Of a stretch of DNA of 64,000 nt, positions 20,616 to 37,332 are shown piece after piece; the stretch's first letter is position 1; each line of letters starts with the position of its first letter. The stretch is from the IMG/VR virus record IMGVR_UViG_3300037258_000514, positions 64,001 to 128,000 of that record; one strand, 5' to 3'. The stretch comes from a virus. The notes under the pieces are model-generated. The model saw nothing but the letters and a program-made list of their open reading frames with translations. It did not search any database and was not told the origin of the DNA. The position numbers and the translations under genes are program-made.

Positions 20616-20690
20616 TGGTAGGCGTAGAGAGAATCGAACTCCCGTAGGACGGTAATCGGCCCGTCTGCTCTGCCCCTGAGCTATACGCCT
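20616..20690 (-). tRNA. tRNA-Ile(GAT), atypical anticodon loop
   Basis: cloverleaf; 8-nt loop GCCGATTA lacking U33/R37. Confidence 0.75.
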
Positions 20691-20924: not shown

Positions 20925-21001
20925 ATCTAGGTGCTCACCGCACCTAGACTTTGAACTTAAACATCCCCCAAGGCTTTTATACCTTTATGTTTAAGCTAAA
21001 A

Positions 21002-21096
21002 TGGTAGTGGACCGGGGAATCGAACCCGCGCCGTCGCTCTAATCTGGAGCTCTCCGGTGAGTATAAGGCACCGCCGCACATCCAGTGCTGTCCACC
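21002..21096 (-). tRNA. atypical long-variable-arm tRNA with TAT anticodon (Ile-like)
   Basis: GGTGGAC/GTCCACT acceptor, short D arm, loop CT-TAT-AC, long V arm, ACCA. Confidence 0.7.
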
Positions 21097-21884: not shown

Positions 21885-21962
21885 TGGCTGTGGGAGAGGG
21901 ATTCGAACCCCCGACCGTCACCTTAACAGGGTGCCGCTCTTACCGGACTGAGCTATCCCACA
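21885..21962 (-). tRNA. tRNA-Asn(GTT)
   Basis: cloverleaf, loop CT-GTT-AA, GCCA. Confidence 0.9.
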
Positions 21963-22579
21963 AAGTTTTTTGCTACTGCGATCCATTGTTGCGGATCGTT
22001 AAACATTTCTTTCCACTTAATACGCAAAACTTTCCAACCTTTGCTAATTAAGTAAGTATCTTTTCTCTGATCTCTTTCTTTAACTTCAATGTCTTCGTGT
22101 TGCTGGCCATCAATTTCAATTGCAAGCATTTTATTCTTCCAGGCGAAGTCAATTTTAAAAACTCCGGTCTGTAAGTTAAAATCATAATATTTATCTGTAA
22201 ATTCGTTTTCTATAACTTTCATGAAAAATTGTTCAGGATAAGATGGTTCGTTATTCCATTGACAAAATCCAATGTTATGTGCACGACCTTCGGCATGAGC
22301 CACTTTCATTTTTTCTGATAGTAGTTGTTTAGTTTCTTTTGTTTGAACTCTTCCTTGCCTGCCGCGTAATTTATTACTGCAACGTGCCGCGCTTAATGCT
22401 ACTCGAGGATCTTGTTTCGTTAATCCTTTATTCCAAGGAATGTTTCCTTTTGCTGATCCTGCTTTAAATGTTATTCCTGCCCCGTGCATTCTCCAGACGT
22501 GTGAAGCAAGTCCTCTTTCAGGTAATTCTTTTTCGCAATGATTGCATATTACTCGTGTTTTTGAAAGCGTATTATACAT
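21953..22579 (-). CDS. DUF559/Vsr-like homing endonuclease with C2H2 and NUMOD3-like segments
   Basis: CNHC...HVWRMH; PWNKGLTK; KIDFAW...AIEIDGQQH...GWKVLRI; stop lies inside tRNA-Asn. Confidence 0.8.
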   Translation of the reverse strand: MYNTLSKTRVICNHCEKELPERGLASHVWRMHGAGITFKAGSAKGNIPWNKGLTKQDPRVALSAARCSNKLRGRQGRVQTKETKQLLSEKMKVAHAEGRAHNIGFCQWNNEPSYPEQFFMKVIENEFTDKYYDFNLQTGVFKIDFAWKNKMLAIEIDGQQHEDIEVKERDQRKDTYLISKGWKVLRIKWKEMFNDPQQWIAVAKNFVG

Positions 22580-22585
22580 AAAAAC

Positions 22586-22698
22586 TTCTGCAACAGTTAT
22601 CCGCCTTTTACTAGCCACTAGTAGAACTATTGTATTGGAAGTCCGCGGTGCTCCCCTCATTCCTACTAGTGATAGCGAGCTATGAATCTGTTGCAGAA
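22586..22698 (-). ncRNA. putative structured spacer RNA
   Basis: terminal stem TTCTGCAACAG/CTGTTGCAGAA, inner CACTAGTAG/CTACTAGTG, AGCACCGCGGA loop. Confidence 0.55.
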
Positions 22699-23013: not shown

Positions 23014-23088
23014 TGGTTGCGGGGGTTGGATTTGCACCAACGTCTGCAGGTTATGAGCCTACCGTATGACCTACGCTACCACCCCGCG
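23014..23088 (-). tRNA. initiator-like tRNA-Met(CAT)
   Basis: C1:A72 mismatch, loop CT-CAT-AA, atypical T loop TGCAAAT. Confidence 0.8.
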
Positions 23089-23557
23089 TCAAACTAATCT
23101 TGTTCCCGCGTTTCCATCCAAGTTCGTAAAACGAATTAAGTTCTGTTAGCCGAACTAACATTGTCTTCTTTTCGCTAACGTTGTAAATCCATCTTTTCCC
23201 GAAGTTTGGGTTTTGTTCTCCTAGTCTCCCATGTAACTGACGAGCTTTTTCTAATCCATGTTTTTCAACAGTTGCTTGCCATAAATTTTTTGTGACTGCT
23301 CCACAAGCAATTGCATCTTGCCTGTTCTCTGATGGTGTTCCCCAATACAAATGAAACGGATTATTGCATTTCTCATTGTGACAGGCATGACAAGCTTGTA
23401 TCCTATGACCTTTTGGAACAGTTGTATTAAGTATGTGTGCAAGCAATCCTCTGCATTGCTCGGAATTACATCCACGTTCAACGCAGAACTCATTTAGTTT
23501 GAGATGAGATTGTCGCTCACTTTTTGTAAGCAAAATATAGTCTTCAATCTTAATCAT
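23051..23557 (-). CDS. His-Me-finger (HNH-type) homing endonuclease, MIxIExYIL family
   Basis: ACHACHNEKCNNPFHLYWGTPSEN; stop lies in the tRNA-Met anticodon loop. Confidence 0.8.
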   Translation of the reverse strand: MIKIEDYILLTKSERQSHLKLNEFCVERGCNSEQCRGLLAHILNTTVPKGHRIQACHACHNEKCNNPFHLYWGTPSENRQDAIACGAVTKNLWQATVEKHGLEKARQLHGRLGEQNPNFGKRWIYNVSEKKTMLVRLTELNSFYELGWKRGNKISLTRGGSVGHTVGS

Positions 23558-24057
23558 GCTCCATCCCTGCGTGATACAACTAAACTTTTGTTTTTCTTTG
23601 CTTCGTTTTTCTTAAACTGTTCTCTTATTGCATTTGCAATATGAGGCAGCGCTGAAAGATCACGTCGACATTCTTCCAAAGAATAGCCAGCTTTCGCTGC
23701 TGCTGCGTCTGCTGTAAAACCTTGTATGTAACAAGTAACAAAATGATGCTCTTTCTTGTTCAACTTCTTCTCTTTTATTTTTCGTTGTTTACCTATTGCT
23801 AAGCAATCATCTACAAATTTGTTAAACTCTCCTTCACGAATTCCGTTGATAAGAGCATCGTATTTCTTGTTCGCTTCTTCATTCATCGCAGCTTGACTAT
23901 CTAAGAAAAGTCTCTGAAGATGAGGGGCCAAAGAAAGATGAAGATCTCTAACAGTTATTTTTAAATTTTGTATTTCAGTAAGTACTTGATCGAGCTTTAC
24001 TTTTTTTGGCTTTGCTTTTGTCTTTTTCTTCATATGGTAAGCATTTATATATACCAA
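23554..24057 (-). CDS. hypothetical protein with terminase-small-subunit-like HTH at the C terminus
   Basis: LNKKEHHFVTCY......AAAKAGYS. Confidence 0.45.
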   Translation of the reverse strand: MVYINAYHMKKKTKAKPKKVKLDQVLTEIQNLKITVRDLHLSLAPHLQRLFLDSQAAMNEEANKKYDALINGIREGEFNKFVDDCLAIGKQRKIKEKKLNKKEHHFVTCYIQGFTADAAAAKAGYSLEECRRDLSALPHIANAIREQFKKNEAKKNKSLVVSRRDGA

Positions 24058-24063
24058 TTACTT

Positions 24064-24372
24064 GTGCCACGTATTCTGTTGACAGGGACGTGGCCTAACC
24101 CCGCTACTTAGCGAACTAAGCAGCAGCAGCTTGCGACATCCATGCGCCCTGAGGGATCATGAAAGGAGCAATCTGAGCAGTTTTGTCTGCATTTACAATT
24201 AGCTTCTCGTTACGGTGAGCAGCTATTTCCGGCGTCGCAAACAATCTACCTTACCTCCGTCGAATCTAATTCATCCCCGTAATTAGCGTCGAGAATGTTT
24301 AGTTGGTGGAGATGGCGGGGTACTGCCCCCCGCGTCCGTCGGTATAGCACATTGTTTGATATACGGCGCACT
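24064..24372 (-). ncRNA. ssrA: two-piece (circularly permuted) tmRNA
   Basis: acceptor piece ...GACGCGGGGGGCAGTACCCCGCCATCTCCACCA (ends 24304) precedes coding piece GGGGATGAATTAGATTCGAC (starts 24278); G3:U70; tag frame 24190-24116 ADKTAQIAPFMIPQGAWMSQAAAA*. Confidence 0.9.
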
Positions 24373-24375
24373 GTC

Positions 24376-24981
24376 TTAAAACTTTAATTTCCTACCTAAT
24401 TGCCAACCCTGTGTAAGATATAGTGCGGTTTCTTCTTTTGCAACAGCTTTTGACTTTTTCTCTTTTGTATTAAAGATCCAGTTTGTTCCAAATCTGTTAT
24501 TTTTGCTTCCCTGTTTTAACATACTCATTAATTCACACGAGCTTTGTTTATGTTTACTCCCCGTCCATTTTCTCTGACCGCGCAAGCTTGCACTCAATGC
24601 AAGTTGTCTGCGAACGTCTGTATTACTATCTAACCAGATACGTAATTTTACGTAAGCTCTTTTCCCTCCAAGAAGTCTATTAAATTTGTTTTGTTTCTCT
24701 ACCCACTCCCATCCGCCCATACCTCCGTTGTTAAGATTATAACATAACGGATTTTCTTTTTCTGCTTCAACAAGTCGAGCCTCGAGCGCAAACATATCTT
24801 CTGCATTGTCGAAATCTGCAAGCACTTCTTTACTAAAATTTACTATGCCATGCTTCTTTATTGCGTACCAGAAAAGTACTCCTGATCCTAAGTAACTATC
24901 ATCAGGCTTTTCTGTTTTATGCGCTCCGATGTAAAACTTGTTATTCACTTTACATGTCGTTTTATAAACTGTATAGTGCAT
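24376..24981 (-). CDS. GIY-YIG (Seg-like) homing endonuclease
   Basis: TVYKTT...FYIGAH...YLGSG...YNL..GG; directly upstream of tmRNA. Confidence 0.85.
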   Translation of the reverse strand: MHYTVYKTTCKVNNKFYIGAHKTEKPDDSYLGSGVLFWYAIKKHGIVNFSKEVLADFDNAEDMFALEARLVEAEKENPLCYNLNNGGMGGWEWVEKQNKFNRLLGGKRAYVKLRIWLDSNTDVRRQLALSASLRGQRKWTGSKHKQSSCELMSMLKQGSKNNRFGTNWIFNTKEKKSKAVAKEETALYLTQGWQLGRKLKF

Positions 24982-25001
24982 AGCAACAAACTTGTTTTAA
25001 A

Positions 25002-25121
25002 TACAGGTAGTCCCACGAACAAGTACTTCGCAAGATTTTAATCCGTTAGTACTCTCGCCTTACTACCTGCATTAGGGCGACCAATAAACCAGCCGCCTCC
25101 ACCATCCAGTCGGACCCTAAT
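25002..25121 (-). ncRNA. putative structured RNA (two long hairpins)
   Basis: ATTAGGG..CGAC/GTCG..CCCTAAT and GCAGGTAGT/ACTACCTGT stems. Confidence 0.45.
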
Positions 25122-25126
25122 ATACG

Positions 25127-25141
25127 CTAGGCCACTCCCCG
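25127..25141 (-). pseudogene. 5' fragment of a tRNA-Pro-like gene
   Basis: CGGGGAG-TGGCCTAG resembles a tRNA-Pro 5' end; no matching 3' half; Pro is the only amino acid missing from the array. Confidence 0.35.
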
Positions 25142-25543
25142 AAACTTTAATCTCCTGTTACTTCCTCTTCTTTTTTTTCGGGCTCTTTAAACTCTGGAGT
25201 AAACTGTGTTTCGTTGTGTTTTAGGTCTGCAATAATTGCAGGCGTTGCATCTGAGTGTTTTACGGGAAGCATTTTACCACACCGTATGCAAGGCGATCCG
25301 GGTTGTTGATCCGGGGCATCATGAGAGCAAGTATCAAGATCAGCCATAGTAATTCTCCTAGTTAAAACTACCACCAGTCCAGTTTTTAATGTAAAAAAGA
25401 ATTGACCTAAAAACTTTTGAAAGAAGAAAGTAATAAAGTAAATACATTACTACGCCATCGTAGAAATAAGCTGAGAGCAGTGCTGCTGTTATATCTGATG
25501 TTGTTCGTTCTAAGAACGTTAATTTTTCCATAGTAGTAAAAAA

Positions 25544-25619
25544 TGGTGGACACTCCCGGAATCGAACCGGATTTTCTAGCTCTTCAGGCAAGCACATTGA
25601 CCTTCAATGTTAAGTGTCC
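25544..25619 (-). tRNA. tRNA-Phe(GAA)
   Basis: cloverleaf, loop CT-GAA-GA, CCA. Confidence 0.85.
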
Positions 25620-25864
25620 ATTTAACTCGCTATAACTTCTTTGACTACATGTCCTATGTGAGCAATACCTTTCGGTACACCACATTCGTTGCACATCCCG
25701 TATTTCTCGGGAAGCGGCTTGTTTGGATTGCAACAGTCGTGTCCACAGCGTTTACAAAATGGACGTTGAAGTCCGTTGTATGTTCGACACTTACAACATC
25801 CCCATCCCGGTAATAGATCTCTTACGTCGAGTAGTAACTGACATTGTTCTGTGTTCATAAAATT

Positions 25865-25943
25865 TGGTGCCCTAGGTGGGATTCGAACCCACAAAATCTT
25901 CTGGGTCTAAGCCAGACGCCTTTTCCGATTTGACCACTAGGGC
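25865..25943 (-). tRNA. tRNA-Leu(TAG), short variable region
   Basis: cloverleaf, loop CT-TAG-AC, CCA. Confidence 0.85.
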
Positions 25944-26399
25944 CTCTTTACTATAAACTCCTTGTTTATGTAGGAGTTTAATAGAATCTGATATTTTTAG
26001 ACACTGTTCTTCAGGTTTTGGCTTTCCTTTATTACCACAACCATTCGTGTTTCCTCTGTGAGCTTGTCTTATTCGTGAAGCTTCTTCGCCATACTTTGCA
26101 ACTGTGTACTGCCAAACTGTTTTGTTATTTCGTCCGCTAGATATAGCATCCATTCTGTTTTCTCTAGGCGTACCCCAGTACACGTGAAATGGATTGCTAC
26201 ATTCTCCATTATGGCAAGCGTGACAAAGTTGAATTTTGTTTCCTCTTGGAATTGATGTATCCAAAATATAAGCTAGTAAGCCTTTTGAATAAACAGAAAC
26301 CCATCCCTCACCGCCACGATAAACACAAGGTTCATTAAGTTTTAAATGACGTTGTCTCTCGGCTTGGGATAGTAGAATATATTCTTCTATTCTAATCAT
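25872..26399 (-). CDS. His-Me-finger homing endonuclease, MIxIExYIL family
   Basis: LCHACHNGECSNPFHVYWGTPREN; frame reads through most of tRNA-Leu(TAG). Confidence 0.8.
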   Translation of the reverse strand: MIRIEEYILLSQAERQRHLKLNEPCVYRGGEGWVSVYSKGLLAYILDTSIPRGNKIQLCHACHNGECSNPFHVYWGTPRENRMDAISSGRNNKTVWQYTVAKYGEEASRIRQAHRGNTNGCGNKGKPKPEEQCLKISDSIKLLHKQGVYSKEALVVKSEKASGLDPEDFVGSNPT

Positions 26400-26405
26400 G
26401 CAGGC

Positions 26406-26434
26406 ATTATAAATTAATTTAACGTGTCTACCAA
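26406..26434 (-). promoter_or_regulatory. sigma70-like promoter giving a leaderless endonuclease mRNA
   Basis: TTGGTA-17 nt-TATAAT, ATG 6 nt downstream. Confidence 0.55.
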
Positions 26435-26442
26435 GCATAAAT

Positions 26443-26520
26443 TGGTGCGCAGAGGGAGATTTGAACTCCCAAACAACTGATTCTCAACCAGTTAGGTATG
26501 CCTGTTCCCTTCATCTGCGC
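26443..26520 (-). tRNA. tRNA-Leu(GAG), short variable region
   Basis: cloverleaf, loop TT-GAG-AA, CCA. Confidence 0.85.
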
Positions 26521-26526
26521 AAATTT

Positions 26527-26617
26527 GTTCGGTAAGGTGATTCATGCGCAACAAACCCTCTCTCAAAAGAAGAAAAGCGTGTGCAGGATCTCCCTGTACA
26601 ACACAGCCTTACCGAAT
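26527..26617 (-). ncRNA. putative structured spacer RNA
   Basis: terminal stem TTCGGTAAGG/CCTTACCGAA filling the Tyr-Leu spacer; inner hairpins. Confidence 0.5.
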
Positions 26618-26618
26618 A

Positions 26619-26705
26619 TGGTGCATTGGGTTGGACTCGAACCAACGTAGCCACTATGGGCAACTGGGTTACAGCCAGTCTGTTTTGCCGCTCACACACC
26701 AATGC
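26619..26705 (-). tRNA. tRNA-Tyr(GTA)
   Basis: cloverleaf with V arm, loop CT-GTA-AC, CCA. Confidence 0.9.
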
Positions 26706-26709
26706 GAAA

Positions 26710-26925
26710 CTACTTAAAAAGTTCTTCGTAAGCTTGTATCATCGTAGTATACTTATTCAGAGGATGTTCATCTGTCCACTCAACTTCACAAACTTCCGTT
26801 TTCATTACTTTCGGCATAATACAACGGTTTGGGTAGTGAGTGTTTTCTATTACGCTTTCTATTTCTTCTGGCGAAAGCTTATCATGATTAACAATGAGTA
26901 TTTCTACTTTGTATACTGTAGTCAT
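26710..26925 (-). CDS. hypothetical protein
   Basis: 71-aa ORF, ..VEWTDEHPLN motif. Confidence 0.55.
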   Translation of the reverse strand: MTTVYKVEILIVNHDKLSPEEIESVIENTHYPNRCIMPKVMKTEVCEVEWTDEHPLNKYTTMIQAYEELFK

Positions 26926-26929
26926 AATC

Positions 26930-27021
26930 TGGAAGAGGGTAACGGAATTGAACCGTCTGTCTGCAATAGCAGCGCAGGTCCTGGGTTCGAGCCAAGTTGC
27001 CCACCATGAGCACTACCCTCT
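26930..27021 (-). tRNA. atypical tRNA-Ser(CGA)
   Basis: AGAGGGT/ACCCTCT acceptor, compact D arm, loop CT-CGA-AC, long V arm, TCCA. Confidence 0.75.
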
Positions 27022-27109
27022 GGCGGTGAGAGCGAGAGTCGAACTCGCGCGTCCCTTGCGGGTACTCCTGCTTTCCAGACAGGTGCTTTTACCATTCAGC
27101 CATCTCACC
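27021..27109 (-). tRNA. tRNA-Ser(GGA)
   Basis: cloverleaf with V arm, loop CT-GGA-AA, GCCA. Confidence 0.9.
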
Positions 27110-27110
27110 T

Positions 27111-27659
27111 CTAAACTTGAGTATTTCTATCGCGTTTGTATTTTCCTTGCGCGTGTAATTCTTTAACAGCTGATGAGATCAACGCGTTCGTGCAACTAGC
27201 CCTTCCGCGCTGCCAATCAGGATAGTTGTTAATTTCTTCTTTTAAAATAAGTTTTTCACTTATTCCATTTGTAATCCAAATCTTTCCAAAAATAACTTGA
27301 CTTGCTTTTTGAATGTTTATCAAAGCATTTTGTCTTGCTAACGTTCGTGCTTTTTCTTCTCCATGTTTCGCTATTGATTTTTCCCAAATATTATGCTGGC
27401 TCCCGGCTTGTTTTGCGTCGTAAAAATTTTCGGTAGGCGTGCCCCAGTATAAGTGAAAAGGATTACTACATTTGTCATTATTACAAGCATGGCAAAGATA
27501 AATTGTATGTTTACTGGGAACTGTTGTATCAAGAATGTATGCGAGTAATCCTTTACACTCCGTTGAGTTACATCCTCTTTCTTCACACAGACTAGAAAGT
27601 TCAAGATGTGCCTGACGATCTACTTTTGTCTTTAAGATATACTCTTCTATTTTAATCAT
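27111..27659 (-). CDS. His-Me-finger homing endonuclease, MIxIExYIL family
   Basis: LCHACNNDKCSNPFHLYWGTPTEN; WITNG...WQRGR C-terminal module; ends 1 nt before tRNA-Ser(GGA). Confidence 0.8.
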   Translation of the reverse strand: MIKIEEYILKTKVDRQAHLELSSLCEERGCNSTECKGLLAYILDTTVPSKHTIYLCHACNNDKCSNPFHLYWGTPTENFYDAKQAGSQHNIWEKSIAKHGEEKARTLARQNALINIQKASQVIFGKIWITNGISEKLILKEEINNYPDWQRGRASCTNALISSAVKELHAQGKYKRDRNTQV

Positions 27660-27666
27660 AAGAAAT

Positions 27667-27761
27667 TGGAGGAGGGCCGGAGAGTTGAACTCCGTTATGC
27701 CAGGTGCTCTGACATTCGCCAGTTTTCAAAACTGGTGGCTGGACCGTGCGCCACGCCCTCC
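27667..27761 (-). tRNA. atypical tRNA-Ser(TGA)
   Basis: GGAGGGC/GCCCTCC, loop TT-TGA-AA, long V arm, unusual D arm, TCCA. Confidence 0.75.
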
Positions 27762-27938
27762 TAATATCGTGTACTAAACGTTAACTTTTTAATTTGTGCG
27801 CGTCTCATAATGTAGTTCTTTAAGAATGCAGCCTGACGAATTTTTCCTTCTTCAACGGCACGAATAGAAAAGTTGATCATTAGCTCAAAGAAACGTTCTT
27901 GCTGCTTGCGTAGTTCATTCAAACTAGGCATAAGATTA

Positions 27939-28029
27939 TGGCGGAGGGTACAGGATTTGAACCTGTGGAACGTTTATAGTTCACTTCTTTAGCAAAGAAG
28001 CGCGATAAGCCGGACTCTGCCAACCCTCC
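27939..28029 (-). tRNA. tRNA-Ser(GCT)
   Basis: cloverleaf with V arm, loop TT-GCT-AA, GCCA. Confidence 0.9.
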
Positions 28030-28196
28030 GAAAACTATAACGCACAGGCTGGACTGTGCCCGCCTGTGCGCTTCTTCCTTTTAGTTTACATTTTGCATTT
28101 CCTCTGTTTATCTTTAACATTTCTAAACAGTGTCAATAGTTTCATCTATATCATATATGATAAGATTTTTGTTGTTATACTCCCTGCATCTGCAAA

Positions 28197-28307
28197 TGCA
28201 ATGGTACTGGAATATAACTCTCATCCTAGGTGCTTGAGTCGGAATACTGAATAAAAACAGGTCCTATCTTATCGTTCGCCGTCCTAGGTGCTCCGGCGCG
28301 TACTGCA
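28197..28307 (-). ncRNA. putative structured RNA with two AGCACCTAGGA hairpins
   Basis: hairpins at 28220-28238 and 28277-28298 enclosed by TGCAGTAC/GTAC..TGCA. Confidence 0.5.
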
Positions 28308-28398
28308 ATCTTGATTGTATTTTTAAGTTTTATCTGTTATTCTGTAGATGTTTTTTCAAGTTTTCATTATTTTGGTCCCCCTACCTCATTTATACCAA

Positions 28399-28672
28399 TT
28401 ACCTGTTTACCTTCCAAATGTTTCTAGCTACTTCTGCTTTGTGCCAAGCTTTAAATGTCGGTGTTTCGATTAGCTTTAAGAAAGCCTCTTTGCGATTAAA
28501 GATGTTGGTCACGACCATCGCGGTGCTCGGCTCGTGCTCCAGAAGCTAGATGAATCAATCTAACTCCATTTTGTTTAGCGTTCCTGCGTTGTCCGCCCTT
28601 ACCACCTGTGCAGAACGTTTGAATTTCAAAATCGTTCTTTGTTACACTAAACAACAACACTTTATTTTCCAT
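28399..28672 (-). CDS. GGQ peptidyl-tRNA hydrolase / release-factor-like protein (ArfB/RF-1 domain) split by a +1 frameshift
   Basis: AAGGAG RBS; MENKVLLFSVTKNDFEIQTFCTGGKGGQRRNAKQNGVRLIHLASGARAEHRDGRDQHL, then CTT-TAA; the +1 frame continues NRKEAFLKL... Confidence 0.75.
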
Positions 28673-28689
28673 GTTGTTCTCCTTGAAAC

Positions 28690-28767
28690 TGGTAGGCGCG
28701 GAGGGATTCGAACCCCCAATTGATGCTGCTTTTGAGGCAACCGCTTTGCCAAGTTAGCTACGTGCGG
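28690..28767 (-). tRNA. tRNA-Leu(CAA) with mismatched acceptor stem (possible pseudo-tRNA)
   Basis: loop CT-CAA-AA; T arm and ACCA intact; 5' CCGCACG vs 3' CGCGCCT gives three mismatches. Confidence 0.7.
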
Positions 28768-29345
28768 ACAAAAAGTTTAGTAGTTCTTCCTTTTTCCCAT
28801 CCTTCTGATATGAAAAGAAGTATTTTGTTTTGTTTAATTTTAATCTCTTTTCCTTCTTTTCGTATCCAGCAAGTTCCAAACTGCGAGTTCCTCTCTGCAA
28901 TTTTCCTTGCATCAGTTAATGCTTCTTTAGCACGTACTTTGTTTTGCTCTTCTTTGTTATTTAATCTTTGTTGATTAATACTAGAAATGTTTTTTCTACC
29001 ACTAGAAGCTTGTATTTCCTTTGCTTTTTCTAAACCGTGTTTTTCGACCATCTTTTGCCATAAAGATTTATAATTACTACTGCAAATGTAATCAGCAGTA
29101 TTTTCTTTTCTTGTTCCCCAATACAAATGAAAAGGATTACTACACTTTCCATTGTTACATGCATGACATGCTTCTACGTTAATCTTATACGGAAGAGAAG
29201 TGTTTAGTATATAAGATAACGTTCCTCGCATTGCATATGAAACTAATGCAGAATTCCCTCCACGTTCTACGCATTGTTCATCTAATCTTAAATGCTTTTT
29301 CCGTTGTTCTAACGGAAGCAAGATATAGTCCTCAATTCGAATCAT
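28758..29345 (-). CDS. His-Me-finger homing endonuclease, MIxIExYIL family
   Basis: ACHACNNGKCSNPFHLYWGTRKEN; NSQFGTCWI...GWEKGR; stop lies inside tRNA-Leu(CAA). Confidence 0.8.
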   Translation of the reverse strand: MIRIEDYILLPLEQRKKHLRLDEQCVERGGNSALVSYAMRGTLSYILNTSLPYKINVEACHACNNGKCSNPFHLYWGTRKENTADYICSSNYKSLWQKMVEKHGLEKAKEIQASSGRKNISSINQQRLNNKEEQNKVRAKEALTDARKIAERNSQFGTCWIRKEGKEIKIKQNKILLFISEGWEKGRTTKLFVRT

Positions 29346-29352
29346 ATGGCAA

Positions 29353-29382
29353 ATTATAATTTGTAGTTGATTCAAAAATCAA
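29353..29382 (-). promoter_or_regulatory. sigma70-like promoter, leaderless endonuclease mRNA
   Basis: TTGATT-18 nt-TATAAT, ATG 7 nt downstream. Confidence 0.5.
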
Positions 29383-29393
29383 GCAATGAAAAT

Positions 29394-29479
29394 TGGTAGG
29401 CCCTATCGGAGTTGAACCGATACTCCCGAAGGAAACGAGGCTTAAACTCGTTGCGTCTGCCGGATTCCGCCAAAGGCCC
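29394..29479 (-). tRNA. tRNA-Leu(TAA)
   Basis: cloverleaf with V arm, loop TT-TAA-GC, CCA. Confidence 0.9.
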
Positions 29480-29489
29480 GTAAAAGAAT

Positions 29490-29677
29490 TCAGAGAAGAA
29501 GGCTGTCATTAGTGACAGTAAAGAAGATTATCATCAATCTGTTTCTCTACTTAACCTAAGCGCGAAGCGCATCTATCACCTTGATCGGCCTCTCCACGAT
29601 CCTTCGGACTCAGCAATAGAGAACTTGCTACACCTAAATGCAATCCGCGGTGCTTTGCTAGTGTACATCTTCTCTGA
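29490..29677 (-). ncRNA. putative ~190-nt multibranch RNA
   Basis: terminal stem TCAGAGAAGA/TCTTCTCTGA; several inner hairpins including an AGCACCGCGGA loop. Confidence 0.55.
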
Positions 29678-29688
29678 TACTTAAAAAT

Positions 29689-29763
29689 TGGTGGAGGGTA
29701 GGAGAGTCGAACTCCTGATACTTGGTTGCAGGCCAAGTGTGTTCCCGCTAGCACTAACCCCCC
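29689..29763 (-). tRNA. tRNA-Ala(TGC)
   Basis: G3:U70, TGC anticodon, CCA. Confidence 0.9.
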
Positions 29764-29765
29764 AG

Positions 29766-29843
29766 ATACCGCTCGCGTCCGAAACGTTTTGCCTAGGAGA
29801 GTTCCAAACAACAGGCGGTATTCATCCACGGAGCGACCGTGAA
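29766..29843 (-). ncRNA. putative structured spacer RNA
   Basis: ATACCGC/GCGGTAT and TGTTTGGAAC/GTTTCGGACG stems, CCTAGG in the loop. Confidence 0.4.
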
Positions 29844-29848
29844 ACTTA

Positions 29849-30610
29849 CTAATTAATTTTATGGGGCGGCAGATGGGAGTCAGACCCACTAAAAGATGCT
29901 CCACAGGCATCTGCCGCATCGTTTGGCTTCTGCCGCCGTAGCTTGATTTCTCTTCTTTCTAATAATCCGTTAAGAGATCCAAAGTTTGGTGTTAAAGAAT
30001 GACAACTCGGACAAAGTATTTTTACATTACTTCGTCTATTATTTGTTCTATCACCATCTACATGGTGAAACTCTGTTGGGATATTTCCCGTAGTAGGATG
30101 AATTCGCATCCAGCCACATTCTTCACAACTATTTCCGCGAAGTTCTATTAAAGCTCTCTGAGCGAAGTATTCAGTTAGATTATTTTCTCCTGCAAACCAT
30201 CTTTCCTTATCTAACTGCCATTTATGCGCTATCCTACATTTTCCGCTGCAATACTCATTTAAGCCTGTTTTACCACAGAACGTACAAAGCCTTCTTGGAA
30301 TTTTTATTCTTCCGATGTTATTAACTATCCCGGCGCAAGTTTTACTACAATATAATAATCCGTTTGGGCCAACAAAGTTAAAACATTCTGCGCGTTGGCA
30401 CTTTACTCTTTGTTTATTCTTTGTTCTAAGTAAAGCATTTTCTTTGTTAACTTGAACCGCTTTCTCTCGCCCTTTGTTCCAGCGTTCTTTTGCTTCTAAC
30501 GAAAGAACTTCGTGATAGGGTTTGCCTCCGACTTGTATACAGTAAGTTTTGTGCCTATTTAATCCACGAATGTCTTTGCATTCCTTACCACATATACAAT
30601 GAACAATCAT
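29849..30610 (-). CDS. HNH homing endonuclease with zinc-ribbon repeats
   Basis: CEECG...EFHHVDGDRTNNRRSNVKILCPSCHS; YCS..C repeats; frame spans the whole tRNA-His. Confidence 0.85.
   Translation of the reverse strand: MIVHCICGKECKDIRGLNRHKTYCIQVGGKPYHEVLSLEAKERWNKGREKAVQVNKENALLRTKNKQRVKCQRAECFNFVGPNGLLYCSKTCAGIVNNIGRIKIPRRLCTFCGKTGLNEYCSGKCRIAHKWQLDKERWFAGENNLTEYFAQRALIELRGNSCEECGWMRIHPTTGNIPTEFHHVDGDRTNNRRSNVKILCPSCHSLTPNFGSLNGLLERREIKLRRQKPNDAADACGASFSGSDSHLPPHKIN
29862..29937 (-). tRNA. tRNA-His(GTG), atypical D and T loops
   Basis: G-1:C73, loop CT-GTG-GA, T loop TCTGACT, CCA. Confidence 0.8.
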
Positions 30611-30621
30611 ACACTGTTATA

Positions 30622-30653
30622 CCAAGCGCCTAAACCATTCGGCCAACGTCACC
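30622..30653 (-). pseudogene. 5' half of a canonical tRNA-His-like gene, truncated at the anticodon loop
   Basis: G-GTGACGT-TG-GCCGAATGGTTTAGGC-G-CTTGG, then sequence switches to TATAAC and the HNH start. Confidence 0.65.
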
Positions 30654-30867
30654 ATAAAACTTAAACTAATCTTCTCCGCGAATTTTTACGAGAGTCCTTT
30701 TTCTTAATTCAGGTAATGAATCTATCTTCTGAGCAAGGGCAAGAAGTTGGGATTCAATTCTACATGCTTCCCTATAAACTTCTTTCTCTTCAGGATTGTC
30801 TTGATTTGCTGCAAAAACTATCTTTGCAACTTCACGCGATATTGCCTCTGCTAAATTAATCATAACT

Positions 30868-30943
30868 TGGAGCCACCGGTGGGACTCGAACCCACGATTG
30901 ACAGTTTACAAAACTGTTGCTGTCGCCACTGAGCCACGGTGAC
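30868..30943 (-). tRNA. tRNA-Thr(TGT)
   Basis: cloverleaf, loop TT-TGT-AA. Confidence 0.9.
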
Positions 30944-30950
30944 TTAAAAT

Positions 30951-31024
30951 TGGAGCCGCCATCGGGAATCGAACCCGAGTAGATTGCTTACCAAGCAATT
31001 GAACTGCCACTGTTCTATAGCGAC
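30951..31024 (-). tRNA. tRNA-Thr(GGT)
   Basis: cloverleaf, loop TT-GGT-AA. Confidence 0.9.
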
Positions 31025-31064
31025 TTACTTACCACATTACCTTCTCAGCCGTCCTTTAGGAAAA

Positions 31065-31138
31065 TGGAGCCGGCAACAGGAATCGAACCTGTGTAGGTAG
31101 TTTACGAAACTACTGAACTGCCACTGTTCTATACCGAC
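31065..31138 (-). tRNA. tRNA-Thr(CGT)
   Basis: cloverleaf, loop TT-CGT-AA. Confidence 0.9.
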
Positions 31139-31342
31139 GTTTATGTATTACTAGGTCTTACTATCCTGGCGTTGATTCTATCCCTACTAAATCTTTCCAG
31201 GATATCCCAAAATACAGCATCAGGAACTTTCCTGTATTCTGATGTAACCATACCAAGGAAGAAGACCATTTCCGCTTCAGTCCACTCAACCAAACTAGCT
31301 GTTAGTATATGGCAGTCGTAAGTTGTTCTTGGCATAAACTTA

Positions 31343-31533
31343 ATCGCGTCCTACTACTGTCATCGCTCGGCTACGTAGTAAGTAAAGAGGACAAAGCGAT
31401 AAAAGACCCTCACCGCGAAATCTTTACAAGGTTTCTACTCCGTTACAGGTAGCCTACCTCCACGACAGTTGCTATGAGCAAGGTTGAGTTCTCTGTAACT
31501 TAGGCTCAACGGGCGGCTCGGATTTGAACCGAG
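31343..31533 (-). ncRNA. structured non-coding stretch beginning with an orphan T arm
   Basis: CTCGG-TTCAAAT-CCGAG-CCGCCCG at 31533-31510, followed by several hairpins. Confidence 0.4.
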
Positions 31534-31543
31534 AAGTGTAATT

Positions 31544-31620
31544 TGGAGCACGGAACCGGAATCGAACCGGTGTATTGGCAGCTTTGCAGGCTGTCGCCTT
31601 ACCGTCTTGGCTATCCGTGC
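31544..31620 (-). tRNA. tRNA-Cys(GCA)
   Basis: cloverleaf, loop CT-GCA-AA, TCCA. Confidence 0.9.
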
Positions 31621-31726
31621 AAATTGTGCGGCAGAAGTAAACTAAATTACTTCTTCAACACTTTTACCAGTAGTTAATCCGACTGCGGGCGCTTAATAAT
31701 AACCCAATCATTGAGCCGCAAACTTC

Positions 31727-31778
31727 CGGGGTCTATCCTACTGCTGTCCTAGGTTCTCAGCGATTCGGTAAGACCCCG
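31727..31778 (-). ncRNA. small structured RNA with AGAACCTAGGA loop
   Basis: CGGGGTCT/AGACCCCG terminal stem, GCTG/CAGC inner stem. Confidence 0.5.
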
Positions 31779-31795
31779 TTTTTGTGTAATATCTA

Positions 31796-31895
31796 TTGTC
31801 GGGAACAAGCGCTAACAGTTAGCGGTATCGAAACCGCAATTGGCTTACGAGGCCAATTTTTATCCAAGAAGTAGCTGTTAACTACGCCACGACAA
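31796..31895 (-). ncRNA. Yrl-like Y RNA copy 1 (inside the tRNA array)
   Basis: TTGTC-GTGGCG...CTACTTC...CGCTTGTTCCC-GACAA scaffold. Confidence 0.75.
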
Positions 31896-31901
31896 AGAAA
31901 A

Positions 31902-31976
31902 TGGAGCGGGTAAAGGAACTCGAATCCTTGTGTCTTGGGTGGAAACCAAGCATACTAGCCGCTGTATGATACCCGC
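31902..31976 (-). tRNA. tRNA-Gly(TCC)
   Basis: cloverleaf, loop TT-TCC-AC, TCCA. Confidence 0.9.
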
Positions 31977-32033
31977 TTAAAATTTTATTTTCCTTCCCAT
32001 CAACCATCCTATTAACCAACCCCGCCTTAAAAC

Positions 32034-32255
32034 TTATCGCAAGAAGCTTGTAGGACTCATTGCTGCATACTTTAGCAAGAATGAAAGCAATCCTACCCAA
32101 AACATGTGCAAGCCAATTACATTGCATTTCATGTTAAGATCTGATGGTGGAGGTGTTGTTGGTCTGGCTGTGATTAAAAACATTACCAAACCAAGTAAAC
32201 ACACTAAAAGTGAAAGATAAATTTGCATTGTTGATCTCCTTTTATATTCGTCCAA
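32034..32255 (-). CDS. small membrane protein
   Basis: two hydrophobic helices; likely start MQIYL after AAGGAG. Confidence 0.55.
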   Translation of the reverse strand: MDEYKRRSTMQIYLSLLVCLLGLVMFLITARPTTPPPSDLNMKCNVIGLHMFWVGLLSFLLKYAAMSPTSFLR

Positions 32256-32394
32256 GCAAGAATAAGATCAGAACAATAATAAAAATTGTTCCTAATAGTC
32301 CTGATGGAGCGTAACCCCAGTTTTGACTGTGAGGCCATGATGGGAAAGCGCCAACGAGCAGTAAGATTAAAACGATTAGCAAGATTAAGCCCAT
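32242..32394 (-). CDS. DUF3309-family small membrane protein
   Basis: MGLILLIVLILLLVGAFPSWPHSQNWGYAPSGLLG...LLGRI (50 aa, below the ORF-track cutoff). Confidence 0.85.
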   Translation of the reverse strand: MGLILLIVLILLLVGAFPSWPHSQNWGYAPSGLLGTIFIIVLILFLLGRI

Positions 32395-32507
32395 AGTTGT
32401 CACCTCGCTTGATCGTAATATAAACCTAAGCCAGAAATCTGTTCAGTTTTATACACTTCGTACTCTTTGATGCTGTTTGGGAGAAAAACGTTTGATACAA
32501 AATTAAA

Positions 32508-32582
32508 TGGCAGGGGATCCGAGACTCGAACTCGGGTAAACGGTTTTGGAGACCGACGTAATGGCCGCTATACGAATCCCCT
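32508..32582 (-). tRNA. tRNA-Trp(CCA)
   Basis: cloverleaf, loop CT-CCA-AA, GCCA. Confidence 0.9.
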
Positions 32583-32587
32583 AAATT

Positions 32588-32719
32588 TATTCTGAGAGGC
32601 GCCAAAGCCTTGTCCGTTGTAGAATGCTCGTAACGACTAGGGGTTGCGCAGTCCCGTTCCGATAGTTTATACTGACACATTCTTGGTCAACCACTCGCCA
32701 CCTACCACCTCTCAGAATA
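32588..32719 (-). ncRNA. putative rod-like structured RNA
   Basis: TATTCTGAGAGG/CCTCTCAGAATA terminal stem; AGAATG/CATTCT inner stem; fills the Asp-Trp spacer. Confidence 0.55.
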
Positions 32720-32720
32720 T

Positions 32721-32797
32721 TGGCGGGCCGTACGGGATTCGAACCCGTGAATGTACGGTAGACAGCCGTATAGCTTAGACCGCTTGCCTAACGACCC
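32721..32797 (-). tRNA. tRNA-Asp(GTC)
   Basis: cloverleaf, loop CT-GTC-TA, GCCA. Confidence 0.85.
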
Positions 32798-32826
32798 CAA
32801 TATTACTCTATTCAGTTGTCAAAGAA

Positions 32827-33486
32827 TTACAACACCGCCGCCTGAACGGCTTGATGAGAATGCGTCTCTTTCTCATCGTTGAACTTTCGGCACTTACTAC
32901 ACCAAATTAGTTTATACCCAAATTTATAAAGACGATTTCCTACTGCAACGGCACTAACGCCCAACTTTTCTCCTACATATGTGTAGGAAGAATTCTTAAC
33001 CATTGTTACAAGCTCGTTAATCTCAGGCCATTCAATCTTCGTTCTTAACCGTAAACGAGCATGAATCTTATTATAAACGCCTTCAGTATGAAGCCTTTTA
33101 GTACGTAACGAAGCCTCTTGACGCGCTTTAACACTAGTAATTCTACACTTTCTCAACTGCATTGCTTTTTCTTCGCCATATTTAGCTATTGTATATAACC
33201 AAATATTTTTCTTTCCATTTGCTATAGCATCTGCAGTATTTTCTGCTGCAGTACCCCAATACAGATGATAAGGATTACTGCACTTCTCATTGTGACAGGC
33301 ATGACAGCAATGAATTTTTACTTCAAAAGGGATTGTAGTATCAACTATATATGCTAGTAGACCTCTACATTCACCTGAACTGCCTTCCTTTGGATTTCCT
33401 CCTCTTTCTACGCAAGGTGAGTCAAGTTTTAAATGAGATTGCCTTTCTTTCTTTGGACGTAGAATATATTCTTCTATATTAATCAT
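32827..33486 (-). CDS. His-Me-finger homing endonuclease, MIxIExYIL family, HTH-like C terminus
   Basis: CCHACHNEKCSNPYHLYWGTAAEN; KIEWP...SY..VG.KLGVS..AV. Confidence 0.8.
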   Translation of the reverse strand: MINIEEYILRPKKERQSHLKLDSPCVERGGNPKEGSSGECRGLLAYIVDTTIPFEVKIHCCHACHNEKCSNPYHLYWGTAAENTADAIANGKKNIWLYTIAKYGEEKAMQLRKCRITSVKARQEASLRTKRLHTEGVYNKIHARLRLRTKIEWPEINELVTMVKNSSYTYVGEKLGVSAVAVGNRLYKFGYKLIWCSKCRKFNDEKETHSHQAVQAAVL

Positions 33487-33520
33487 AAATACTTCAAGCC
33501 CCTGAGGGCGTCACAAACTT

Positions 33521-33597
33521 TGGCTGGCCACCCAGGATTCGAACCTGGAATCTTCGCGTTCAGAGCGCGCTGCGTTCGCCGGTTGCGCCAGTGGCCA
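33521..33597 (-). tRNA. tRNA-Gln(CTG)
   Basis: cloverleaf, loop CT-CTG-AA, GCCA. Confidence 0.9.
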
Positions 33598-33811
33598 ATT
33601 TACTAAACAAAATCTACTACGTTGTTATTTATACCGCCCTGCGGCGGTGCTGGATTCGTCTGTTCAACATTTGTATTCACAGGATTATCAACTCCCGGTA
33701 CAGGAAGTCCGTAAGGATTAATGTACGAAGTTCCTGTGTTTTGGTAGTACCATCCGAAGTTATTAAATCCCGGTGATGACATTAACGTCTCCTAAATGGC
33801 AGTTCTAATTT

Positions 33812-33887
33812 TGGTAGCCCGAGCAGGACTCGAACCTGCGCTATTCTGCTCCAAAGGCAGACGTCTTGGCCGCTAAACGATCGGGCT
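33812..33887 (-). tRNA. tRNA-Gln(TTG)
   Basis: cloverleaf, loop CT-TTG-GA, ACCA. Confidence 0.85.
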
Positions 33888-34505
33888 ATTAACTTTCTCT
33901 AACTTCTTTCCGGCATACATTCGTTGAATTTTTCCCAACTTCCAACCCTGTATTGTTGCTAGTGCTATAAGATTCTTTTCGATTCTAATATTCTTGTCTT
34001 CTTTGTTCATCCAAACTGTATCCGTAGCTTGGTTTCTACTTCCAACGCAAAGCTTACGTCCATTTGAAATCTTTGCTTTTAGTTCAGATGAAACTATGAA
34101 ACTAGGATGAAAACCTTCACGTCCTTCTTTCCAACCAAGAGTAACAAAAAGTTCTTTGTCATAAAGACAAATTAATCGTGTTAAGCCGTTGTAAGACATC
34201 CAAACTTTATCGGCTGTATTGCGTTTATCTCCGAAATTATTTGTGTATCCGTTTTCTACAGCATCAACACGATTATCTGTCGGTGTTCCCCAGTATAGAT
34301 GAACTTTGTTACTACATTTTTCATTGTGACACGCGTGACATAAGTAAATTTTATATCCCTTTGGGATAGAAGTGTTTAAGTAGTCAGCTAACATGCCTTT
34401 AAACTCAACTGAAAATCCCCCGCGTTCAATGCAGGGATCGTGCAATTTTAAATGAGAGCGTCTTTGCTCTCTTGACAACAAAATGTACTCTTCTATTTTT
34501 ATCAT
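33873..34505 (-). CDS. His-Me-finger homing endonuclease, MIxIExYIL family
   Basis: LCHACHNEKCSNKVHLYWGTPTDN; two W...GWK.G modules; stop lies inside tRNA-Gln(TTG). Confidence 0.8.
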   Translation of the reverse strand: MIKIEEYILLSREQRRSHLKLHDPCIERGGFSVEFKGMLADYLNTSIPKGYKIYLCHACHNEKCSNKVHLYWGTPTDNRVDAVENGYTNNFGDKRNTADKVWMSYNGLTRLICLYDKELFVTLGWKEGREGFHPSFIVSSELKAKISNGRKLCVGSRNQATDTVWMNKEDKNIRIEKNLIALATIQGWKLGKIQRMYAGKKLEKVNSPIV

Positions 34506-35994: not shown

Positions 35995-37332
35995 TTATTG
36001 AATCTTCTCTAGTTCACGAATGAAATTGATGCAAGCTTCACTCCATCCGTCAATGTGTGTCCACTCTCTGTAACCAAGGCCGTTCTTGTTAGAAGCAACG
36101 TTAATTACATACCCTTTACCTTTGGGTGAAGCAATCCCATCGTGGGCTTGTTCATCAGTGAACACAATGATACGATCATAGCCTTCTCTTGAATTAATGT
36201 GCTGTAAAGCTCGTTCAAGATAAGTTGAACCGTGGGGCAAGCTGTTTACGATCGCATCACGTAGAGCAAATCCTCTACGAGCAGGTACTAGCACGCATTG
36301 AGAGCTGAATGTGTAGACAACACAATCAGAACAAATTTCACGCGCTAGCATTGCCACTCCACAGGCAGCATCCATTCTAGTGATCTCAGACTTTCCTGAG
36401 ATTTGCGCTTCCATTGAACCGGATACGTCTATTAATAGAATAGTCTTACCTGTAAGCTTTTCCTGCTCCTTGAGACACTTCATCATACCTGCTTCAAGTT
36501 CTTGCTCAAGTTTCGGAGCATAACGAGCAGCGGCGATGAAGCGGAACGGAAGTACGCGTTCGGTCTTGATGTTTAGCAACGCCTTACGAATATTGGAAAT
36601 GTCGACTCCTGCTTCTTGCATGTTACGCAAGTTGCGAAGGAGAGCCAAAGCGCCCAGCTGATTTTCTGCGAGCTTTGATTCCCATACTGCTTTCTTCTGT
36701 TCCTCTGTCTTCTTTTCCTCTCCTGCCGACAAGGCTACTTCCCAAGTCGAAGCAGGCGGGAGAGTTCCATTAACTAACTGTTTCCAAACTGCTTCTTGCT
36801 CTTCGTCTTTCGGCTTTGCGTGCGACAGGAACAAAACATCACGAAGCTTTACTGCATTGTCTTGGTTGTACTTCGCCAAGTCATAGGCAGAAAACTTATT
36901 GAAAGCCTTTGCAAGACCTTTTTTCACTTGAGCAGAAAGTGTTTTCTTTCCCGGTTGATCTGCCCAGTAGAGTGCAAGGAACTCTGCAAGTTCATCAGCA
37001 CGTTGAATTACACGTGCAAGTGTGTCAGCAACGAGACTACCATCAACATCTTTTCTCTTTGCCAACGAACGGACAAGGAAAAGAGGCATGTGACGAAGCT
37101 TCTGTTGTTCGCGACATTCGATTGCCAACTGTGCAACTTTGTTGGAATCAACATGCTTTGCCGCTTCGAGAACTTGCTCAGAGATCGTCTTACCATCAAC
37201 ATAAAACTGATCTTCAAATAACATCGTTGCAAGAGTTAAACGACGAAGCTGAAGTTCAGGCGAAATCTGAACCGCCTTTGCTCCTTCGTGTGTAAAAATT
37301 GGGTTGGATAGTACGGCTGTGTTTGTACGCAT
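35995..37332 (-). CDS. rsr: Ro60 / TROVE + vWA Y-RNA-binding protein
   Basis: THEGAKA, LFEDQFY, IQRADEL, LAKYN...VKLRDVLFLSHAKP, TWEVALS, ALLRNLRN, LPFRF, DVSGSM MIDAS, FTDEQ. Confidence 0.95.
   Translation of the reverse strand: MRTNTAVLSNPIFTHEGAKAVQISPELQLRRLTLATMLFEDQFYVDGKTISEQVLEAAKHVDSNKVAQLAIECREQQKLRHMPLFLVRSLAKRKDVDGSLVADTLARVIQRADELAEFLALYWADQPGKKTLSAQVKKGLAKAFNKFSAYDLAKYNQDNAVKLRDVLFLSHAKPKDEEQEAVWKQLVNGTLPPASTWEVALSAGEEKKTEEQKKAVWESKLAENQLGALALLRNLRNMQEAGVDISNIRKALLNIKTERVLPFRFIAAARYAPKLEQELEAGMMKCLKEQEKLTGKTILLIDVSGSMEAQISGKSEITRMDAACGVAMLAREICSDCVVYTFSSQCVLVPARRGFALRDAIVNSLPHGSTYLERALQHINSREGYDRIIVFTDEQAHDGIASPKGKGYVINVASNKNGLGYREWTHIDGWSEACINFIRELEKIQ

Follow-up and report, generated by a model that had tools for sequence, protein, structure and literature searches.

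The stretch of DNA analysed here (the window) comprises 64,000 nt, bases 64001-128000 of a 175,952-bp phage contig from a soil phage (IMG/VR record IMGVR_UViG_3300037258_000514), and carries at about 16.9-34.8 kb an array of RNA genes lying wholly on the minus strand. Within this array, six open reading frames (ORFs) share an N-terminal nuclease-like domain, and each lies directly 5' of, or overlaps, a different tRNA or tRNA-like gene. The six are probably free-standing homing endonucleases belonging to a family of tRNA-gene parasites, in which a cassette of nuclease plus tRNA invades tRNA genes and the C-terminal tails are exchanged. The reading draws on the paralogy of the six genes, conserved active-site residues, linkage to tRNA genes, clades that follow the isoacceptor, patchy occupancy, the recurrence of one cassette unchanged between unrelated flanks, and stumps of broken tRNA genes that pair with each other.

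Six nuclease genes and their tRNA partners

An earlier reading, made from the letters alone (the sequence-only reading), had reported six ORFs with a common N-terminal domain of about 90 amino acids (aa). All six were confirmed, at the window coordinates given below and, like every other window feature in this text, on the minus strand. The common domain proved longer, at about 115 aa, over which the paralogues are 46-52% identical to copy 1. Their alignment contains 32 invariant columns, including C25, C56-H57-A58-C59, N61, C64, N66, H69, Y71-W72-G73-T74 and N78, and C-terminal of the common region the copies diverge completely. Since every copy retains all invariant residues, none is obviously dead. 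A profile of the six, run against the whole 175,952-bp contig, returned no further copy.

Adjacency to tRNA genes, as claimed earlier, also held, with the stop codons falling between 72 nt inside the tRNA and 29 nt before it; one partner, which had been taken for tRNA-Leu(CAA), is not a normal class II tRNA-Leu. Copy 1 (168 aa, 23051..23557) stops 38 nt inside an initiator-like tRNA-Met(CAT) at 23014..23088, a gene with a C1:A72 mismatch that ARAGORN calls only at a relaxed threshold and that scores 37 bits with Rfam. Copy 2 (25872..26399) has 175 aa counted from the aligned ATG, the frame being open to 26438, and its stop lies 72 nt inside tRNA-Leu(TAG) (25865..25943), so that the frame reads through the full tRNA gene. 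Copy 3 (182 aa, 27111..27659) starts 7 nt past tRNA-Ser(TGA) and stops 1 nt before tRNA-Ser(GGA) (27021..27109). Copy 4 (195 aa, 28758..29345, frame open to 29375) has its stop 10 nt into a tRNA-like gene of 75 nt whose anticodon is CAA (28693..28767). This gene has a short variable arm and, by hand count, 4/7 acceptor pairs; it is not called by ARAGORN and is possibly a pseudo or chimeric tRNA. Copy 5 (219 aa, 32827..33486) stops 29 nt before tRNA-Asp(GTC) (32721..32797), and copy 6 (210 aa, 33873..34505, frame open to 34541) stops 15 nt inside tRNA-Gln(TTG) (33812..33887).

Four of the six stop codons (copies 1, 2, 4 and 6) are inside the tRNA. One possibility raised by this gene order is that RNase P, by cutting the co-transcript, would create stop-less messages that go to the phage tmRNA (24065-24420), so that the dose of a toxic enzyme would be capped.

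Two observations concern the immediate neighbours of these genes. The start of copy 1 overlaps, as ATGA, the stop of a 167-aa ORF (23554-24057) with a small-terminase-type helix-turn-helix (Terminase_2, E 3e-6), which may be a DNA-binding partner of copy 1 or may be unrelated to it. Next to copy 3, tRNA-Ser(CGA) and tRNA-Ser(GGA) (26930-27109) adjoin with one base, 27021, in common, and in Rfam the ordinary tRNA model fits the Ser(CGA) and Ser(TGA) genes less well than a tRNA-Sec-like one does (36-40 bits, below threshold).

Identity of the N-terminal domain

PHROG profiles place the N-terminal domain (N-domain) among HNH/endonuclease families (E 3e-9 to 1e-6). H57 and N78 are invariant in 54 family sequences, and a profile of these sequences compared with solved structures gave I-PpoI as the sole match, at a weak E of 0.08. 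In the profile alignment, CH57AC..C64.N..H69.YWGT...N78 pairs with the active-site stretch of I-PpoI, with H57 and N78 opposite H98 and N119, and C25, C59, C64 and H69 align with its zinc site 1. An AlphaFold2 model of copy 3 has a predicted local distance difference test score (pLDDT) of ~95 over the N-domain and shows strands at 54-57 and 70-73 followed by a helix at 75-85, which is a beta-beta-alpha core.

Based on the alignments and the model, the N-domain is read as a putative zinc-stabilised His-Me (beta-beta-alpha-metal) nuclease nearest to the homing endonucleases I-PpoI and I-HmuI, of whose families it is formally a member of neither. By alignment to I-PpoI, H57 would be the general base and N78 a metal ligand, and C25, C59, C64 and H69 would form the zinc site. 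I-PpoI has a second zinc site. Its counterpart looks absent here, because neither the six-copy nor the 54-sequence alignment contains a conserved cysteine C-terminal of N78. Searched against 1.84 billion representative proteins, the family comprises, at E<=1e-30, ~243 clusters formed at 50% identity.

The strict contact between gene and tRNA, the overlapping stop codons and the co-transcription on one strand would also suit proteins that act on RNA, processing, protecting or repairing the adjacent tRNA or its precursor and encoded beside their substrate. Such a role is highly improbable, as the fold and motif point to DNA homing endonucleases and the C-terminal modules are common to a GIY-YIG homing endonuclease. 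Further, a helper linked to its substrate predicts neither the presence/absence polymorphism nor the identical cassette in unrelated genomes that are described below.

tRNA linkage across the family

Within the window alone, contact with tRNA genes is only suggestive of homing into them, because the array is very compact: an RNA gene lies at the 3' end of all six His-Me nuclease ORFs and of 9/29 other ORFs. It becomes convincing only with the family-wide data. A scan of IMG/VR gave 80 loci with homologues, 64 after dereplication, and a linked tRNA was defined as one on the same strand starting -100 to +40 nt from the nuclease stop codon. Such a tRNA is present in 51 of the 64 dereplicated relatives, often at exactly -15 or -10, the opposite of the lack of tRNA association among homologues that the sequence-only reading had named as counting against it. 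tRNA-Leu makes up 45 of the 51 linked tRNAs, compared with 16.5% of all tRNAs in these loci (p 4e-29).

The linkage extends to the anticodon. In a maximum-likelihood tree of the N-domain, the Leu(TAA)-linked clade has support of 98/96 and the Leu(TAG)-linked clade 89/93, and the isoacceptor label changes only twice among 44 rows, as against 14.8 times in shuffles. Cultured phages also carry the family. The product gp169 of the Ralstonia jumbo phage RsoM2USA, annotated as hypothetical, is encoded by a gene with a 36-nt overlap into tRNA-Leu(TAA) and, upstream, a D-arm stump, and a Citrobacter T4-like phage has a family member at the edge of its tRNA array.

Mobility and insertion inside tRNA-Leu genes

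The family is mobile: among the relatives, the same element occurs in unrelated contexts and its presence is sporadic. Between two loci, L027 and L029, identity is 100% over ~680 bp (-60 to +620, counted from the ATG) and the sequences are unrelated outside this span, which covers the spacer, the nuclease, tRNA-Leu(TAG) and ~90 nt beyond. Conversely, L019 and L027 have identical flanks and different cassettes. One subtype of tRNA-Leu(TAG) has the nuclease in front of it in 12/80 contigs, all 12 with a 15-nt overlap. Most nuclease-free sites of that subtype contain no nuclease relic, which indicates that this tRNA-Leu(TAG) subtype was not spread by the cassette alone.

Presence and absence can also be compared between L161 and L099, whose flanks are 91-96% identical and which differ by a 485-nt indel corresponding to the nuclease gene. 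As L099 retains the last 28 nt of the nuclease ORF, it is a decayed site, or deletion derivative, and was rejected as a virgin empty site for L161. A flank-specific pattern search for an untouched L161-like site matched L161 and L099 only.

Evidence for entry into the tRNA gene itself comes from stumps on both sides of the cassette. In 21/64 loci, the start codon is preceded at a distance of 26-65 nt by a fragment identical to positions 1 to ~27 of a tRNA-Leu and ending in GGTAGACAC, where 1% is expected by chance (p 6e-26). This 5' stump is usually followed by a T4-late-promoter-like ATAAATA; motifs of this kind lie upstream of the gene in 30/64 relatives and are absent upstream of the six window copies. 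The cassettes of L027 and L029 have at their right end a 3' stump consisting of the T arm, the 3' strand of the acceptor and ACCA. The left and right acceptor strands pair in each case, GCCCTGG with CTAGGGC in L027 and GCCCAGA with TCTGGGC in L029, and 7/7 acceptor pairing between 5' and 3' stumps is found in L019, L064, L075 and L079 as well. The paired stumps indicate that a resident tRNA-Leu was split, lost its anticodon and variable arms and was functionally replaced by the complete tRNA of the cassette. Hence the earlier wording that the nucleases colonise tRNA genes is literally true of the family, several relatives having the cassette inside a broken tRNA-Leu gene.

A further feature of the 5' stumps was noticed in L003, L005, L012 and other loci. 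Here, 20-60 nt upstream of the nuclease start, the end of the stump (GACAC...) pairs with a downstream GTGT(C/T), and the resulting hairpin is immediately followed by a TATAAATA-like late promoter; some loci have apparent compensatory changes. The hairpin could be an operator or a processing signal.

Probable exchange of C-terminal modules

Behind the common domain, the six copies have distinct tails. A ~40-aa W...(G/D)W..G(R/K) module is present singly in each of copies 1, 3 and 4 and as a pair in copy 6. Copy 1 has a single W...GW..GR module at aa 115-155, copy 3 has the variant W...DW..GR, copy 4 has a long linker followed by one W...GW..GR module, and both modules of copy 6 are of the form W...GW..G(R/K). 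The C-terminal 40 aa of the GIY-YIG endonuclease encoded at 24376-24981 in the same array are this W...GW..GR module again (BLASTP E 3e-7 and 4e-5). Copy 2 ends in the motif GNKGKPKPEE..KIS, as do most tRNA-Leu-linked relatives; a GK.K..E(E/H)K.KI-like motif is present in copy 2 and in 30/46 Leu-linked relatives. Copy 5 ends in a helix-turn-helix-like segment with a weak match to HTH_50 (E 0.018). When the isolated C-terminal parts were searched against Pfam, no NUMOD model was returned even at E 10, and, the weak HTH_50 hit of copy 5 aside, none of the tails matched a Pfam model, the W...GW..GR module included. The modules named in the sequence-only reading have fared accordingly: W...GW..GR is borne out, and 'NUMOD3-like' and 'HTH' apply at the level of motifs only.

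Tail and tRNA type vary together. GW or helix-turn-helix modules are found in 0/46 Leu-linked and 8/11 non-Leu-linked family members, a count that is not phylogenetically independent. A case independent of the window is L077, a module-bearing, non-Leu-linked member on tRNA-Gln that is nested in the Leu-TAA clade. Within the window, copies 1, 2, 3 and 5 form one clade and yet have three C-terminal architectures on four different tRNAs. Members on the same or similar tRNA types were compared by BLAST of their C-terminal parts (L077 with copy 6, L037 with copy 5), and no similarity beyond the N-domain was detected. That one catalytic domain had been retargeted by swapping modules, as first suggested, gains comparative support from the counts and from the single clade. 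The link between C-terminal module and tRNA target is, on the sequences compared, supported and not proven, and module type would be what sets the target.

Origin of the window copies and proposed mechanism

Copy 2 retains a trace of insertion. Its start is separated from tRNA-Leu(GAG) by a stretch containing a 14-nt stump of a tRNA-Leu D arm, GCTTGGTAGACACG (26423..26436), the one remnant of a broken tRNA that the window yielded; a 3' stump was not found for this copy in the window. Copies 1, 2, 3 and 5 form their clade in the N-domain tree with support of 94/90, copy 4 groups with the tRNA-Leu(CAA)-linked relative L036 (94/80) and copy 6 groups with the tRNA-Arg-linked relative L037 (97/89). 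Relatives of the phage were reached through the neighbouring Ro60-like gene, at 44-70% protein identity. In these loci (80 loci, 648 kb) tRNA arrays are present and the nuclease family appears as 1 partial match only. Its near-absence from the relatives' tRNA arrays indicates that the six-fold expansion is specific to the lineage of the window phage.

In other phages, the nuclease gene and the abutting tRNA gene travel as one unit. Having entered a resident tRNA-Leu, this unit takes the place of the anticodon and variable arms, with the 5' and 3' stumps left on either side, and provides a complete tRNA as replacement. In the mechanism proposed, the enzyme would, during a mixed infection, cut the nuclease-free tRNA allele of the other phage. 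Repair of the break would then copy the nuclease and its linked tRNA, homology being provided by the tRNA-derived stumps or by the neighbouring array. That the enzymes cleave, where their target site lies and that the linked tRNA is immune are predictions from sequence comparison. At least one lineage, that of copies 1, 2, 3 and 5, would have moved from tRNA-Leu(UAG) to the Met, Ser and Asp tRNAs with the C-terminal module changing alongside, and part of the module repertoire is common to the GIY-YIG endonuclease of the same array. The tRNA genes beside copies 1 and 3-6 are, likewise, their presumed targets. More tentatively, and with somewhat less than even confidence, such cassettes may be a general 'cut and replace' drive by which RNA genes are overwritten with no intron involved and phage tRNA arrays are built up and diversified; here one nuclease lineage would have been re-aimed at several tRNA species through module exchange.

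Several results weigh against the interpretation of the six ORFs as homing endonucleases that invade tRNA genes. Some concern the nuclease assignment. The Pfam scores of the N-domain are all under the gathering thresholds, with zf-His_Me_endon (PF05551) reaching at best 25.7 bits against a cut-off of 27 and HNH_3 (PF13392) 19.1 bits against 24.8, and for copy 6 there was no match at all. Among 48,161 solved chains, the best fold match to the copy 3 model is weak and below a safe Z (I-PpoI, Z 4.2 over 62 residues at 23% identity), with I-HmuI at Z 3.2, and a Foldseek search of the PDB with the same model gave nothing significant (E>0.5). Others concern invasion. Given the compactness of the array, unrelated ORFs in it likewise end at a tRNA (the 9/29 given above). 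No partial tRNAs flank the five copies other than copy 2, including in a permissive-E Rfam search of the window, and 'break and replace' is for that reason not established for copies 1 and 3-6. A changed D arm as the feature that spares the linked tRNA was considered and rejected, its motif occurring in 16/44 linked and 18/48 unlinked tRNA-Leu. The remaining points concern origin. The free tree splits the six copies in three, and the approximately unbiased (AU) test fails to reject a single clade (p 0.43), so that one expansion and three acquisitions are not separable. A Megablast search of 50,697 phage records with the region as query gave no match, and the relatives reached through the Ro60-like gene are too distant for empty-site alignment because of their low protein identity; with no close relative found by either route, no empty site is available against which to compare the window copies.

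Some of these points would be expected if the array were simply a safe haven, where ordinary homing endonucleases with other targets, such as spacers or ORFs, pile up because insertions are tolerated, and where contact with tRNA genes reflects packing. The presence of four endonuclease classes in one array, the 9/29 non-nuclease ORFs that also end at an RNA gene and the five of six copies with no tRNA stump all fit this explanation. Passive accumulation, however, is not expected to produce isoacceptor specificity (45/51 linked tRNAs being Leu, with clades sorted by anticodon) or insertions inside tRNA-Leu with paired stumps, and 6/6 remains an enrichment over 9/29. We regard the safe haven as unlikely.

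Less likely still is that the copies are domesticated, being kept since the breaks they make drive amplification or exchange of tRNA genes against tRNA-cutting host defences, with selfish spread secondary. Every catalytic residue is kept in all six copies, and the array encodes a tmRNA, a GGQ protein and, besides 30 ARAGORN tRNAs, two that Rfam adds. A precedent is available in T6 SegB, whose amplification of tRNA-Tyr defeats the Septu defence (PMC13096335). However, the window showed neither repeats nor amplified segments, the relatives of the phage have tRNA arrays without the nuclease family, and sporadic occupancy together with the decayed copy in L099 fits a selfish life cycle. Homing into tRNA genes by a parasitic family is, on balance, the reading that we retain.

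The surrounding RNA-gene array

The array contains 30 tRNAs called by ARAGORN, 2 further tRNA-like genes found with Rfam, a permuted tmRNA and a CyVA-1 RNA. Its four endonuclease classes are the His-Me family, GIY-YIG, a DUF559-type enzyme and classical HNH. The GIY-YIG homing endonuclease (24376..24981; phrog_314, E 4e-38) extends up to the 5' edge of the tmRNA gene. The third type, with a DUF559 / REase_MTES_1575 domain (21953..22660), has its stop codon 10 nt inside tRNA-Asn, and the fourth, a classical HNH endonuclease (29849..30610; phrog_1271), has tRNA-Ala 85 nt downstream.

The tmRNA gene (24065-24420), which lies within the tRNA array, is a two-piece gene of the alpha type (Rfam RF01849, 77.8 bits; RF04321, 76.4 bits). 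A 58-aa ORF with a GGQ motif (28496-28672) matches the RF-1 (peptidyl-tRNA hydrolase) domain at E 3e-8, slightly below the Pfam cut-off, and may encode a minimal ribosome-rescue or release factor. The CyVA-1 RNA sits among the tRNA genes at 31343-31419 (RF02965, 53 bits, above threshold). Adjoining the array is a Ro60 orthologue with TROVE and Ro60 vWA domains (35995-37332); a match to YrlA, a Y-RNA-like RNA, at 29809-29917 scores 19 bits, far below threshold, and a partner RNA for Ro60 is not established by it.

Unusual tRNA forms are present as well. ARAGORN reports a tRNA with a four-base anticodon (cgat) in an 8-nt anticodon loop at 20616-20690, which could be a frameshift-suppressor-type tRNA or a decayed gene. 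Orphan T-arm-like hairpins occur outside the called tRNAs at ~20990-21040 and ~31500-31540, the former followed by a 7-nt strand and ACCA. Neither is beside any of the six nuclease genes, and they may represent remnants left by broken tRNA genes, or else mini-tRNAs.

Comparison with known systems

The closest published system is SegB of T4/T6, a free-standing GIY-YIG homing endonuclease in a tRNA gene cluster. As described in PMC2330249 and PMC13096335, SegB cuts inside the tRNA genes of segB-less phages via a common T-loop motif and neighbouring tRNA genes are co-carried, and the latter source reports that it can amplify tRNA genes against host defences. SegB and the window family have in common a free-standing nuclease gene between phage tRNA genes. 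They differ in fold, GIY-YIG as opposed to His-Me. They also differ in placement: SegB homologues are enriched near tRNAs and have no isotype preference, whereas the window family is tied to the 5' edge of the tRNA and to particular isoacceptors. Further, no broken resident tRNA with a replacement copy is described for SegB in the parts of those papers that were consulted (PMC2330249, PMC13096335).

With respect to the catalytic domain, the nearest enzymes are I-PpoI, of the His-Cys box group, and I-HmuI, of the HNH group, which gave the best sequence and fold matches to the N-domain. Both are intron-encoded, in contrast to the window genes, which are free-standing and not in introns. The window family has counterparts of the first zinc site of I-PpoI only and, unlike I-PpoI, is not found in a group I intron of nuclear rDNA. 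I-HmuI-type enzymes consist of a nuclease and modular DNA-binding repeats (PMC5714182). The window family resembles them in combining a nuclease with modular parts that would bind DNA.

Free-standing endonucleases are also found in the tRNA region of T5, namely the F-Tfl enzymes. Intronless homing by free-standing phage endonucleases is known for SegE, SegF and SegG, as summarised in PMC2330249, and for MobE (PMC2790892). These systems resemble the window family in having a nuclease beside a conserved target gene, sporadic occupancy and co-conversion of flanking DNA. They differ in that they are intergenic and lie beside an intact target, whereas relatives of the window family lie inside the target, whose function is restored by the copy that they carry.

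Shuffling of modules among homing endonucleases (NUMOD domains) was reportedly described by Sitbon and Pietrokovski in 2003. The window offers a parallel: in one genome, a single putative DNA-binding module follows both a His-Me and a GIY-YIG catalytic domain, which are unrelated; the difference is that the W...GW..GR module falls outside the Pfam models. To our knowledge, no earlier work has connected module type with tRNA isotype. A literature search found no paper on a tRNA gene interrupted by a nuclease cassette that brings its replacement, and none on the His-Me family of the window. What is new in the window is the occurrence of six paralogs in one array that have spread beyond tRNA-Leu with exchange of the DNA-binding tail.

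Homing endonucleases reach conserved genes via introns or inteins, or sit beside them. If the present reading is true, there would be a third, splice-free route into conserved genes, taken by a cassette that disrupts a tRNA gene while supplying a functional one in its stead, and the spread of tRNA genes between unrelated phages would be explained. The idea can be tested at the bench in a cultured phage, as RsoM2USA gp169 is accompanied by a stump. In the window, six copies with a common catalytic domain, different tails and different tRNA partners provide a ready comparison set for specificity swaps, of relevance to nuclease engineering and to natural 'cleave and rescue' drives.

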